64,000 bases of DNA from Eledone cirrhosa (taxonomy: Eukaryota). The stretch is taken from assembly GCA_964016885.1 (NCBI GenBank), contig OZ024756.1, forward strand, positions 14,880,001 through 14,944,000. The letters are read 5' to 3'. The notes beneath the pieces were generated by a model. That model was not told where the DNA came from, searched no databases, and saw only the letters and a list, made by a program, of their open reading frames with translations. The position numbers and the translations under genes are program-made. Positions 40,795-45,149 of this stretch are shown here, piece after piece. Each line of letters opens with the position of its first letter. Position 1 is the stretch's first letter.

Positions 40795-41368
40795 ATATAT
40801 GAGCGGAACAAGTAAACATTAAACAATCTTTTAAATAAATTAAAATACGATTTAAATATTTACCTCTTCTAGTGCCATGACCGACGGTTTCGCTAATCAA
40901 AAGATTGGACATTCAGAGAATTTCCAATGGAAAGATATAGCTCTTCAGATAGCTTTTCCAAACCTACTAGATATAAATCCACGTAGATGTGGATGTGTCG
41001 CTTTCTGCCCGGTGAATGAATCAAGCCGTTAAAATGACCACCACACAAATGGGCCGTTAGAAAAAGCGGGAATAATAGACTCGTTGATATTTCCTGTCAC
41101 TAGAAATAGCAGCATCATACAACATTTTTTTTCTCAACATTAAGGAGAATTCAGATAAATGTTATAGATATTCCAGTAGGCACTAAGTACCCACGGAAAT
41201 ATATATGGTGTCTATAATAGTGGTTGTTCCATGGTACTAATTTGAGATACCAGAACTGTAAATATGAGCGGAACAAGTAAACATTAAACAATCTCTTAAA
41301 TAAATTAAAATACGATTTAAATATTTACCTCTTCTAGTGCCATGAAAGAGTGGAAATTCAGAGAATTA
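40795..41368 (-). mobile_element. 465-bp non-coding HHR-bearing unit with partial tandem duplication
   Basis: gagcggaacaagtaaac...ctagtgccatga at 40801 and 41266. Confidence 0.7.
40874..40953 (-). ncRNA. Hammerhead motif with a 50-nt stem II
   Basis: gctat-CTGAAGA-GCTA..ATTGGA..TCCAAT..TAGC-GAAA-CCGTCGG-TC-atggc. Confidence 0.8.
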
Positions 41369-42130
41369 TATATATATAAAGTTATAGTTCCTGTCTGTTT
41401 GTTTGTTCACGAACTCCTCCTATGGTTTTGGAGATAGACCCCCATAACCATATATATTCTGAAACTACATTGCCCTGGGTACTTCGATAAGTATATTTCA
41501 TTTTAATCAAAGGGTTCCCCGGGGACACAAACCCCCGCTGAAAATATTTTTCCTTCGATTTATATGAAATTTAAACCATAGGTAAATGACGAGATATGAT
41601 GCCTATTCACAAAATTTCAGCAAATTTCAATAATATTAATACACCCTAAGGGGGTTAAACCCCCTATAGTGAACATTTTGGCCAATAAATAGAACGAGAT
41701 TTCACGAACTCCTCCTATGGTTTGGGAGATAGACTCCCATAACCATATATATTCTGAAACTACATTGTCCAGGGTACTTCGATAAGTATATTTCATTTTA
41801 ATCAAAGGGTTCCCCGGGGCACAAAACCCCCGCTGAAAATTTTTTCCCTTCGATTTATATGAAATTTAAGCCATAGGTAAGTTTTGAATTGATATTTTGA
41901 AAATAAATTATTTACAAGAAACAAAATAAGAATAAGATTTAATAATGTAATTTTGATTTGATATATTAATAATATTTTTCAATTTTTCATGCATTACATT
42001 TTACATTGAGCAATATTGAAATGCAGAGTTTTTCTCCATAAATTATATCACTGATTTAAAATTAATCATCATTTTCTTACAAAAAAAAAAAAATGTGTGA
42101 AACGCAGCAAGGCGCGGGTAATTCAGCTAG
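41368..42130 (+). mobile_element. Non-autonomous Helitron-like element with a ~295-bp internal tandem repeat
   Basis: 5' tatatataaa...tgtctgtttgtttg; 3' GC-rich subterminal segment, then CTAG before T. Confidence 0.6.
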
Positions 42131-42326
42131 TATATATATAAATGTAATCTGAGTTTTTCGCATATTAATAATAATATTCGATTCGTTTGCAATTATGCAA
42201 ACAACCTCTTTAAAGCCATGTCAGTAGAATGAGCCCCTACATTCTTGCTCATGTGTTGGCAGGTACACCCGCACATACCATATACATACATACGCATATA
42301 TATATATATATACATACATACATACA

Positions 42327-42361
<35 letters not shown>

Positions 42362-42362
<1 letters not shown>

Positions 42363-42765
42363 TATCACAGAAAAAAAGAGAATCAGTGTTGCGACGAATG
42401 GAATTTATTGGACATATTACAATCGTTTCTCTGGCGACCAGCTCAAGACACGATCGATGTGATGATCGAACCTGACTCTAAAAATCGCAAGGTCCTCAGA
42501 TACGTCTTGATTCTACGAAGTAGATTTTCCTTCGTAGAATCAAGACGTATCTGAGGACCTTGCGATTTTTAGAGTCAGGTTCGATCATCACATCGATCGT
42601 GTCTTGAGCTGGTCGCCAGAGAAACGATTGTAATATGTCCAATAAATTCCATTCGTCGCAACACTGATTCTCTTTTTTTCTGTGATATCATACTCTGTTC
42701 TATGAGAGCATCGAGTGCTCATACGGCTTACCGCATACAGACGCTTTAAGCATCCAACACCAATT
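42362..42765. mobile_element. Palindrome (159-bp arms, 9-nt loop at 42521-42529) plus ~75-bp tail, in (TA)n
   Basis: 42362-42520 is the reverse complement of 42530-42688. Confidence 0.9.
42544..42639 (+). ncRNA. Hammerhead motif with a 63-nt stem II domain; mirror copy at 42411-42506 minus
   Basis: gacgtat-CTGAGGA-(63 nt)-GAAA-CGATTG-TA-atatgtc, then AATAAA. Confidence 0.75.
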
Positions 42766-42824
42766 ATATATATATATATATATATATAATATAAGATCAA
42801 AAGATGGTTAAGGGAGTTCCATAT

Positions 42825-42893
42825 ATTTTATTATGCGCATTTCAAAAACAAACATCATCATGCAATAATATTTGTGTTTTCATCAGATAAAAC
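42825..42893 (-). ncRNA. Type I hammerhead motif
   Basis: gttttat-CTGATGA-aaacacaaa/tttgttttt-GAAA-TGCGCA-TA-ataaaat. Confidence 0.8.
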
Positions 42894-43046
42894 AGGAGAA
42901 CATGATATGAAGGCTAAAAAACACTTGTGGATAGTGCAGTTTTAAATCAACATATCATCTGCATACTCCAGTCCTACAAACTGTAGAGTGCTTCTTATCC
43001 GATATCTGCATTGCTTTATTGTACTACAATAAAACTCACCTCCTAC

Positions 43047-43080
<34 letters not shown>

Positions 43081-43530
43081 GTATGTGCGGGTGCTGGTTC
43101 GACCGAGGAACTGCTGACAAAAATAAGCCAGTGGTATCTTGTAGTTAAGGAAACGAATTGAGTCATTAAGACGTCGGATAGAATGTTTTGTGATATTAGT
43201 TTCGGATCTCTGATCTCTGAGTTCAAATCCCACCGAGGTCAACTATGTCTTTCATCCTTTCGAGGTCGATAAAAGAAAGTACCAGTTTAGTACTGGGGTC
43301 AATTCTTTCTCTATATCTCTTTCTCACTTCCAATCTCTTTCTCTCTATATTCTACTCTGAAATAAATCTGCCGTGTTCAGGCGTAGAGAGGAGATAGACT
43401 CCGCCATGTTTTAAAAAGTGCCCTAGAAACGCCGTAAGTCAATTTGACGCCACTACGGGATTTATATGCCCATACTATCCAAGTCCATATGGGTAATTTA
43501 TCATATAGTATATATGTGTAAGATAGTATA

Positions 43531-43715
43531 TACAGTGAAATTCCGTTATAACGAAATTCACGGAGTATAAAAAATTCGTTGTAACGAAAAATTCTTTATA
43601 ACGAGATCGACCAAAACAAATCCAGTGTTTGTTATTACTTCGGGGATTGAAAAAACTTTCGTTATACTGAAAAATTCGTTATAATGGTATTCGTTATAAC
43701 GGAATTTTACCTGTA
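43531..43715. mobile_element. Tigger-like MITE
   Basis: TA-CAGTGAAATTCCGTTATAACGAA...TTCGTTATAACGGAATTTTACCTG-TA. Confidence 0.8.
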
Positions 43716-44641
43716 TACAAAGAAAAAAATACATACGTGCAAATGAAATTCTTTTTCTCCTGTTAAAGTATTGGTATTTCGGAAGAAATTGTTATCTGGT
43801 ATAATCGTATCGAAGAATATTGTGGAGAAAGTTCCATTACAGAACGTAACCGATTCTGGTAAATTGAATTCGAAATTTGATTAAAACCGATGGAAATTTG
43901 AATAGAGAAAGATTTCCAATAAATATAATAATAAATATAAACTCTGCCCTCAGGAATCCGGTTTGATTGGAAAAATAAAAATTCCATATTTCGAAGTAAC
44001 AATATTAAGAATCTATTTGCAATTCATAGGAAAAGAAAAAGAAGGAAGAAAGAGAAAAAAATGGTGATTTTTAAACAAAAGTGACTGATAAATTTCTTAG
44101 ATTTGCAGCTAAGAACCAATCAATTTATTTTTCTTTAGAATGCAGAAACAATTATAACTAGGTACATATACTCTGGAAATATTTCTAGGTTCTTGAAATA
44201 TTGTACTGACGAGATATTGTGAAAAAAGAAAAAAAAGACAGGACAGGACGAAAATAAGAAATAAACCAACGAAATTGCAACATTCTTTTTTTTTTAAAGA
44301 AGATTTAGCAGAAAAGAGGGTTTTTACAATACAACACCTTGGGCCAAATGTCTTGTACAATAGTCCCGGGTGGGACACTGAACAATCATGTCTATATGAT
44401 TAACCGAAATTGTGTTGACCTCCAACGGAAATATGACGATAATAGGATATTCCCCTTTTACCAATTTTCCGCTCTACTCAGATTCTGACTCACACACACA
44501 CATTATATATATATAATGTAGGAGGTGAGTTTTATTGTAGCACAATAAAGCAATGCAAATATCGGATAAGTAGCACTCAACAGTTTATAGGAATGGAGTA
44601 TAAATAATATAAAATCAAAAGATGGTTAAAAGAGTTCCATG

Positions 44642-44712
44642 TATTTTATTATGCGCATTTCAAAAACAAATATCATCATGGGAAAATATTTGCGTTCTCA
44701 TCAGATAAAATA
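44642..44712 (-). ncRNA. Type I hammerhead motif (same family as 42825)
   Basis: tattttat-CTGATGA-gaacgcaaatat/atatttgttttt-GAAA-TGCGCA-TA-ataaaata. Confidence 0.85.
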
Positions 44713-44860
44713 GGGAGACATGATATGAAGCTTAAAAAACACTTAAATCAACATATATATTTATATATGTTGATTTAACACTTCACTTATATATATATAT
44801 ATATATATATTGAAAGAGTGGAGAATAACATGGTCAACAGTACAAAAAAGGTTTTTATTT

Positions 44861-44974
44861 ACAGTCTAATAATTGTTTCACGGATTAAGTTGTCTAAAAA
44901 TTGCTGAACACTTGAAGCTGTGCCACTCAATTTTAAATACGTTGTTAGCTTAACCAGATCATCAGAGAAACTGT
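44861..44974 (-). ncRNA. Hammerhead-like motif with a 79-nt stem II domain
   Basis: acagtttct-CTGATGA-tctggttaag...cttaatccgt-GAAA-CAATTA-TT-agactgt; sister copy near 58902 has CAATTG. Confidence 0.6.
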
Positions 44975-45055
44975 TTCTCTGAAAAGGCCCAAATAACAGG
45001 ATGGTACTATGTGATGCGGATGGAACAGATGGGATATTTTGGAACACACAAGAGA

Positions 45056-45149
45056 GACATATCTGAGGAAACTTCGAATGCAGAGTCAGGTTCGATCTGT
45101 AACAGAACCTGCCCCGAGCTGATCGATGGAGAAACATATGTAATATGTT
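45056..45149 (+). ncRNA. Hammerhead motif with a 61-nt stem II domain (related to 42544)
   Basis: gacatat-CTGAGGA-(CAGGTTC/GAACCTG helix)-GAAA-CATATG-TA-atatgtt, then AATAAA. Confidence 0.75.

Follow-up and report, generated by a model that had tools for sequence, protein, structure and literature searches.

Hammerhead ribozymes predicted in the genome of Eledone cirrhosa carry a stem II that is enlarged into a long arm of 50-116 nt, where 12-25 nt is usual. Selection has preserved this arm as an RNA helix through compensatory changes. The point of departure is a stretch of 64,000 nt (assembly GCA_964016885.1, contig OZ024756.1, positions 14,880,001 to 14,944,000 of the forward strand; hereafter, the window), in which four type I motifs have a domain II of 50, 63, 79 and 61 nt. 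As judged from sequence, the 63/61- and 79-nt motifs end Penelope-like elements (PLEs) of the Hydra clade. In many of the long-armed families the arm bears a small internal loop, once or twice, and the repeated loop is a likely candidate for a protein-docking site. The reading leaned towards here, and judged somewhat probable, is that of a dimeric, assisted ribozyme with an arm on which a protein would dock. Comparisons with the literature refer throughout to the portions of the cited papers that were available.

Long-armed hammerheads in the window

The window is microsatellite-rich eukaryotic DNA, and it was scanned with a descriptor that sought the core, GAAA, a palindromic stem III, UH and stem I. 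An earlier note on this DNA had claimed four hammerheads with enlarged stem II domains, and all four could be located, far above shuffle chance. Between 36 and 48 kb, nine cores pass the descriptor against a mean of 0.06 (maximum 1) in 100 dinucleotide shuffles, and a strict form of it finds seven against none. The motifs have the core CUGANGA, GAAA and UH in type I order, and the four long-armed loci fall into three unrelated repeat groups (50; 63/61; 79).

Three of these loci were returned by the descriptor scan. The motif with the 50-nt arm (F50) lies on the minus strand at 40874..40953 (core 40948-40942, domain II 40941-40892) and has a G-C pair at the base of stem II, CCGTCGG as stem III and a GUC site. 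The 63-nt hammerhead, on the plus strand at 42544..42639 (domain II 42558-42620; stem III CGATTG; predicted GUA site), has a C.A mismatch at the base of stem II and a single internal loop formed by an A.G pair, a bulge and a U-A pair (A42573, G42574/G42608). Its exact mirror occupies 42411..42506 on the minus strand, where the same insertion has an inverted arm that is truncated at the 5' end (42362-42520), and both copies lie within a 159-bp perfect inverted repeat. A sister subfamily is represented by the 61-nt motif at 45056..45149 on the plus strand (domain II 45070-45130); its stem II opens with an A.A mismatch and has one A.G/bulge/U-A loop, its stem III reads CATATG, and its predicted site is GUA.

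The fourth locus is a decayed type I hammerhead on the minus strand at 44861..44974, and its 79-nt domain II (44958-44880) contains the A.G/bulge/U-A loop twice (A44938/G44894 and A44927/G44904). Its stem III reads CAATTA, with a broken pair, where its family has CAATTG followed by TT or TC and a predicted cut-site triplet GUU or GUC; this decay is why the copy failed the descriptor scans. Consequently, the claim that the core, stem I and a palindromic stem III are kept stands for three loci and fails for stem III of the 79-nt copy. The letters quoted for the pairing-preserving differences between the copies at 42544 and 45056 are correct, and it also holds that neither copy closes the base of stem II with a Watson-Crick pair. 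Such a mismatch is usual in published Hydra-clade hammerheads and is not peculiar to these loci.

The window copies are dead insertion fragments. Individually they fold weakly (z of -1.86, -0.96, +0.17 and -3.43 for the 63-, 61-, 79- and 50-nt copies), so that the case for the long arm rests on the families.

The long arm as a conserved RNA helix

The 57-63-nt group was aligned with 59 of its 115 distinct copies, balanced over subfamilies. In the insert, 81.4% of 1282 cells are paired, compared with 21-39% when the partners are slid, and 56 cells are changed on both sides, compared with 33.9±4.7 in shuffles. Eleven subfamily consensuses, which cover 106 of the 115 copies at a mean identity of 74%, share one fold (alifold -17.2 kcal/mol; structure conservation index 0.88), and the fold z is below -1.5 in ten of them. 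A tree-aware null, simulated on the consensus tree with the changes per column preserved, gives 198.7±7.1 paired cells where 218 of 251 are seen (p=0.003), and 4.45 pairs with both-side change where eight are seen (p=0.015). Covariation in the inserts, which had been named beforehand as the check to make, is thus present by two measures: pairing exceeds both the slid partners and the tree-aware null.

Around the insert, stem I is 90% paired in the 59-copy alignment, and stem III consists of one pair plus the palindrome, in which A-U and U-A are swapped in 54 of the 59 copies, many of which were gathered by a pattern that fixes the core. No position has changed more often than the basal pair of stem II (6+3 changes), and this pair, 10.1-11.1, is often a mismatch; U10.1-U11.1 has been reported to support cleavage (PMC3088659), and a mismatch at the stem II base is tolerated in the axolotl HHR_Amex2 (PMC7229834). 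G-U pairs are frequent in the aligned arms, and in 15 of 20 families folding is better for the sense strand than for the antisense strand. A coding insert is ruled out: arm lengths of 57, 58, 61, 62 and 63 nt break any reading frame, the series not running in multiples of three, and five tails of the 79-nt family contain no open reading frame (ORF).

A repeated internal loop

The internal loop is of the 2x1 type, 5'-A-N-U/A-G-3', that is, an A.G pair, a bulged base and then a U-A pair. In the class with arms of 74-93 nt, whose copies were gathered by the core pattern, independently of the loop motif, 62 of 76 distinct copies have two such loops about 9 bp apart; the double loop arises in 19 of 22,800 mononucleotide shuffles. 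In an alignment of 39 double-loop copies made from sequence only, the block lines up except in two families with an extra base. The 13-pair helix that holds the two loops is paired in 80.4% of 500 cells (32-44% with slid partners) and has 54 both-side cells, compared with 19.9±4.4. When the nine family consensuses are compared, at a mean identity of 53%, eight of ten invariant columns are loop or loop-closing bases, and the pairs that flank the loop vary among G-C, A-U, U-A and C-G forms. The double-loop families belong to elements whose endonucleases are 47-76% identical to that of the 79-nt family; because the loop-bearing families are related, the recurrence reflects conservation and not convergence.

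Outside this class the loop is found in simpler form. The 57-63-nt group has the outer loop once (GAGU/AGC, like the 79-nt family), and in its 11 consensuses three unpaired bases of one internal loop (A, G, G) are invariant. A 115-nt family has a single loop with the U-A closing pair, and the class of 97-116 nt keeps a loop-like sequence. The first loop lies 12-17 nt from the junction and the second 24-27 nt, which places the two about one helical turn apart; there is no terminal loop near the junction, and the internal loops are 12-27 nt out. A genome pattern for the loop pair alone gave 38,043 matches against 16,280 for the control, and it was set aside because unrelated repeats dominate it.

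Could the loops be mere passengers of an arm that was free to grow? Such an explanation holds that the outer part of stem II is dispensable for catalysis and was lengthened by fold-back and slippage errors of the reverse transcriptase (RT), its pairing being selected only against misfolding of the core, and the loops being inherited leftovers or stacking elements. It agrees with the continuous range of arm lengths, from 12 to 116 nt, with a step from 99 to 116 nt that includes tandem copies of a 10-nt AT-rich unit, with the amplification of arms both with and without the loop to thousands of matches, and with the fold-back junctions that are common in these insertions. What it accounts for poorly is that the unpaired loop bases stay invariant while the adjoining paired bases change, and that the loop is kept twice, at a fixed spacing, across families with endonucleases as diverged as those above; this explanation is rather unlikely.

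A proposed docking arm and its alternatives

How might a protein-docking arm serve a ribozyme? In the proposed mechanism, stem II would have grown into a long conserved helix, and the palindromic stem III would allow an active dimer to form from two copies. The arm may stack away from the core and hence leave it unobstructed. Its loops would be too distant for the usual contact between loop I and loop II, and they may face one side of the helix, like a repeated protein site. The bound protein would most likely be the element's own and would aid or time self-cleavage, which may be slow and protein-assisted, as reported for Anolis Poseidon. A protein-assisted PLE hammerhead has been described (PMC11167929), as has cleavage in the form of dimers (PMC4209133, PMC6765202), and the swap seen in the palindromic stem III matches this dimer model. 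A further proposal is that of a natural allosteric hammerhead, in which Hydra-type elements of this lineage would have installed a repeated protein-binding module in stem II and the element's own RT-endonuclease would switch cleavage and so choose between mRNA and template for transposition; this is considered unlikely.

Another possibility is that the loops dock onto RNA, either the extended stem I, the AAUAAA strand behind the cut site or the dimer partner. Such a contact would replace that between loops I and II and make a protein unnecessary. Canonical hammerheads need a contact of stem I with stem II (PMC3088659), and AATAAA follows the cut site at 5-10 nt, directly past stem I, in 14 of 20 long-armed families (e.g., 42641-42646). 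A fixed tertiary contact is hard to reconcile with a first loop whose distance varies from 12 to 17 nt and a second one 24-27 nt out, and the families of 95-116 nt are without AATAAA even though the 97-116 class keeps the loop-like sequence. Docking of this kind is quite improbable. The position of AATAAA also invites the speculation that cleavage at the predicted site would split the upstream RNA from its poly(A) signal.

Predicted cut site and insertion ends

The 5' ends of insertions give little sign of the cut site. For the 82/83-nt family, 79 matches gave 77 contexts, in which the script called 47 junctions, eight of them at +1; two of the eight keep the core on inspection, which leaves 6 of 45 true 5' ends at +1 and no peak at the cut site. 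Positions +2 to +9 hold 2, 5, 1, 2, 5, 5, 13 and 6 ends, respectively. Seven families mapped by BLAST give no cut-site signal either. Among F50 copies without C before the cut site, 5 of 11 start there, compared with 1 of 8 at the control position, an excess that is confounded by AT microhomology. Flat 5' ends would fit the result in Anolis, where uncleaved RNA is the main insertion template (PMC11167929), and they would be equally expected from an inactive motif.

The latter thought leads to the last alternative, in which the core is vestigial and does not cleave, and the arm serves at the DNA level, as promoter or factor sites of the pseudo-long terminal repeat (pLTR), or as an RNA fold for reverse transcription or translation. 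The pLTRs are known to hold promoters (PMC6765202), in Anolis insertion proceeds in vitro without cleavage and reads do not end at the site (PMC11167929), and in the present genome there are no clear cut-site ends. The frequent G-U pairs and the better folding of the sense strand speak against this view, as does the covariation of stem III in 54 of 59 copies (with the bias of the core-fixing pattern already mentioned), and it is regarded as highly improbable.

The reading with a protein-docking arm must also face several observations that weigh against it. Besides the flat 5' ends and the confounded F50 excess, many families have a GUU triplet at the cut site, and GUU is a weak site for hammerhead cleavage. 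The number of pairs with both-side change equals that of shuffles in the 57-63-nt insert (10 vs 10.0) and in the double-loop helix (6 vs 6.0). Default RNAalifold finds no consensus fold in the raw copies of either length class, and it is RIBOSUM scoring that recovers the fold that the default misses. The consensus tree has weak nodes, and the fold was derived from the sequences on which it was tested; the loop motif, likewise, was defined on the same sequences as those tested. Neither F50 nor the 95/96-nt families have the loop, and it is also missing from short-armed Hydra hammerheads, so that mobility does not depend on it. A loose test of one loop by itself gave 7 of 13 groups against a null best of 6.6, not significant after correction for the look-elsewhere effect, and for this reason the claim rests on the paired, position-matched form.

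The elements that carry the motifs

The 42530..42765 segment (plus strand) is the 3' end of a Hydra-clade PLE and comprises the pLTR and a long tail. It is part of the insertion at 42362-42765, whose mirror arm stops at the short end and whose plus arm runs on to the long one, each terminating in (TA)n. A transcript of this insertion, with its two motifs on opposite strands, would be expected to make a 159-bp duplex instead of a ribozyme. The long tail of the 63-nt family contains a small hairpin (42700-42720), situated between its two alternative 3' ends.

The suggestion that the motifs are Penelope-type hammerheads was borne out by the families. Copies of the 63-nt family have up to 2.9 kb of upstream sequence in common, with a Hydra-type GIY-YIG endonuclease about 1.77 kb upstream of the hammerhead; in the 79-nt family, a Hydra-type endonuclease lies 0.95 kb upstream. 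The endonuclease fragments of both possess the CxCX5C linker, YIG, CxxC and CxH, and the linker, CxxC and CxH define the Hydra clade (PMC8557442). The Pfam GIY-YIG model matches one of five fragments with E=0.0018, below its cut-off. An RT fragment occurs upstream of the 79-nt family at locus L136 (RVT_1, a weak E=0.0032), and the RT motifs RWK and DKT were seen only in an unlinked fragment, L111. No intact full-length copy is present among seven long loci of the 63/61- and 79-nt families, and two 79-nt copies 4.6 kb apart (L131) were ruled out as one full element.

The 3' untranslated regions (UTRs) of these elements measure 0.4-1.8 kb. Measured from the predicted cut site, insertions of the 63-nt family end at +50-59 (37 of 72) or +120-134 (23 of 72), and those of the 79-nt family at +55-64 (10 of 20) or +225 (8 of 20). 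The insertions end in (TA)n, often together with a truncated partner in inverted orientation. Within the 79-nt family, loci L093, L101 and L103 differ from L083-L091 by a stem I variant that gains a base on the 3' strand and has a shifted 5' strand, with the pairing kept. Among the RNA datasets listed, none contains the 63-nt family.

F50 is of a different kind. The insertion at 40791..41345 (minus strand) comprises one full 464-nt monomer, which begins 2 nt before the predicted cut site, and about 85 nt of the unit after it, and it terminates in (TA)n. The 464-nt unit is arranged head to tail, has no open frame above 50 codons and keeps one fixed 3' end, with tandem hammerheads in 2 of 25 loci. 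Copy L130 is one unit long in another circular permutation (monomer 214 to 211), which is what a circular template would give, and the relative L268 has two compensatory changes in the inner helix. F50 is likely a retrozyme-like passenger that would borrow the enzymes of a PLE. Its insertion in the window is flanked by a GC-rich palindromic repeat (40482-40534 and 40704-40780) and by 180-nt repeats at 40574, 41406 and 41701.

Further hammerhead motifs returned by the descriptor scan of the window have a domain II of 12, 18, 27, 30, 32 and 36 nt. Two with a 36-nt AT-rich hairpin arm and stem III TGCGCA (42824-42894 and 44642-44712, both minus strand) lie among the long-armed loci and belong to a 26-36-nt group with an AUA site. 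A near-perfect fold-back insertion at 38693-39039 contains mirror hammerheads with a 32-nt arm, and another at 37490-37758 has a hammerhead-like 3' half (GAAA, CCGG, TA), its core not being located. A candidate with a 98-nt arm (44199-44331) was discarded, its spacer being an A/T run and its stem III non-palindromic.

Genome-wide scale and arm-length families

Each motif is repeated in the genome: searches by family scored 40 each of 1867 (63-nt), 1755 (61-nt), 1885 (79-nt) and 2558 (50-nt) first-look candidates, and the loci inspected lie in the initial part of contig 1. With an exact pattern, the 57-63-nt group has 2,965 matches in the genome and none in the control. Family-free patterns give 10,684 matches (control 81) for spacers of 66-96 nt and 13,385 (control 76) for spacers of 97-127 nt, together about 24,000 against about 160; these are pattern matches and not copy numbers. 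A metagenome scan for the double-loop class was rejected as chance, since all 29 of its 29 matches are without stem I (0-2 pairs).

Clustered families span arms of 12 to 116 nt, and nearly all of the arms at the sampled loci are one long hairpin, with a helix of about 20-45 bp and internal loops in the long ones. The 95/96-nt families (L126, L211, L224, L233) are branched, their domain II forming a three-way junction that bears two hairpins (z -5.4). In L241-L270, a very abundant family of 99-116 nt whose arm was lengthened by the tandem 10-nt unit, many copies are arranged as inverted pairs. The 82-, 83-, 90- and 104/105-nt families also have a Hydra-type endonuclease 0.4-1.1 kb upstream, which shares 36-76% identity with the one of the 79-nt family.

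Relation to known hammerheads

None of these motifs is seen by Rfam: there is no hammerhead match at gathering score in the whole window, and none at E<=10 between 36 and 48 kb. The Rfam matches that fall on palindromes are microRNA-like and not hammerheads. Rfam probably misses the long-armed motifs because of arm length, and published descriptors are short; the "HHR_core" descriptor of Craig 2021 (PMC8557442) has a spacer of 7-17 nt. The idea of an under-annotated subclass holds to this extent, but the lengths form a continuum over several groups. Nor is the enlargement of stem II entirely undescribed, given that a domain II of ~48-54 nt is already listed for the Selaginella elements PLE-X1_sMoe and PLE-X1_sTam, flagged there as non-canonical (File S2, PMC8557442). 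Those belong to another clade and kingdom and have, as annotated, a short stem and a long loop; unlike here, covariation or a repeated module is not reported in the available part of that source. The same paper gives eight Naiad "half cores" 35-50 nt apart.

The closest relatives are the Hydra-clade hammerheads (PMC8557442), which are likewise type I, near the 3' end, with a palindromic stem III, a stem II whose base is often mismatched (U.U there), frequent GUU/GUA sites, (TA)n targets and a CxCX5C-type endonuclease. The listed Hydra families differ in having a domain II of ~12-26 nt (23 in Hydra-1_oBim) instead of 57-116 nt with a repeated loop, and the 3' UTRs of 0.4-1.8 kb also set the present elements apart from them. 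The minimal hammerheads of PLEs (PMC4209133) share the reduced palindromic helix III, the dimer model, a larger helix II, an odd base beside the core and the presence of many families per genome. The earlier note had called PLE hammerheads minimal, which is apt for helix III and not for helix II, larger there than usual; it is of 6-8 bp, whereas the present arms have ~20-45 bp, internal loops and, in the 95/96-nt families, a three-way junction. Elsewhere, "long helix II" also means 6-8 bp (PMC13725137).

Anolis Poseidon PAc (Frangieh et al. 2024, PMC11167929) has, as here, a pLTR hammerhead and two 3' ends, left by two start sites of reverse transcription; its ORF starts inside stem II, whereas the arm here is non-coding. 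F50 resembles the metazoan non-LTR retrozymes (PMC7229834; bioRxiv 10.64898/2026.07.22.740005) in being a non-coding type I unit with partial tandems, and differs from them in being mostly dispersed, with one fixed 3' end instead of long arrays, and in its 50-nt arm, with no recognised contact of loops I and II. A search of the literature, as far as the sources were available, found no hammerhead arms of 57-116 nt and no such loop, and Arkhipova 2017 (Terminons), Lunse 2017 and the supplementary figures of Cervera 2014 may bear on this point.

Significance

In the families described here the arm grades from 12 to 116 nt and carries no, one or two copies of a conserved loop, and this natural series is one on which the role of hammerheads in PLEs can be tested. 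With ~24,000 pattern matches in one genome, and with the examples in the window missed by Rfam, existing counts underestimate the hammerheads of animal genomes. A loop that recurs and covaries on the arm of a ribozyme is a candidate for a new RNA-protein module and, if the allosteric reading were true, tens of thousands of such ribozymes would be hidden from current models.

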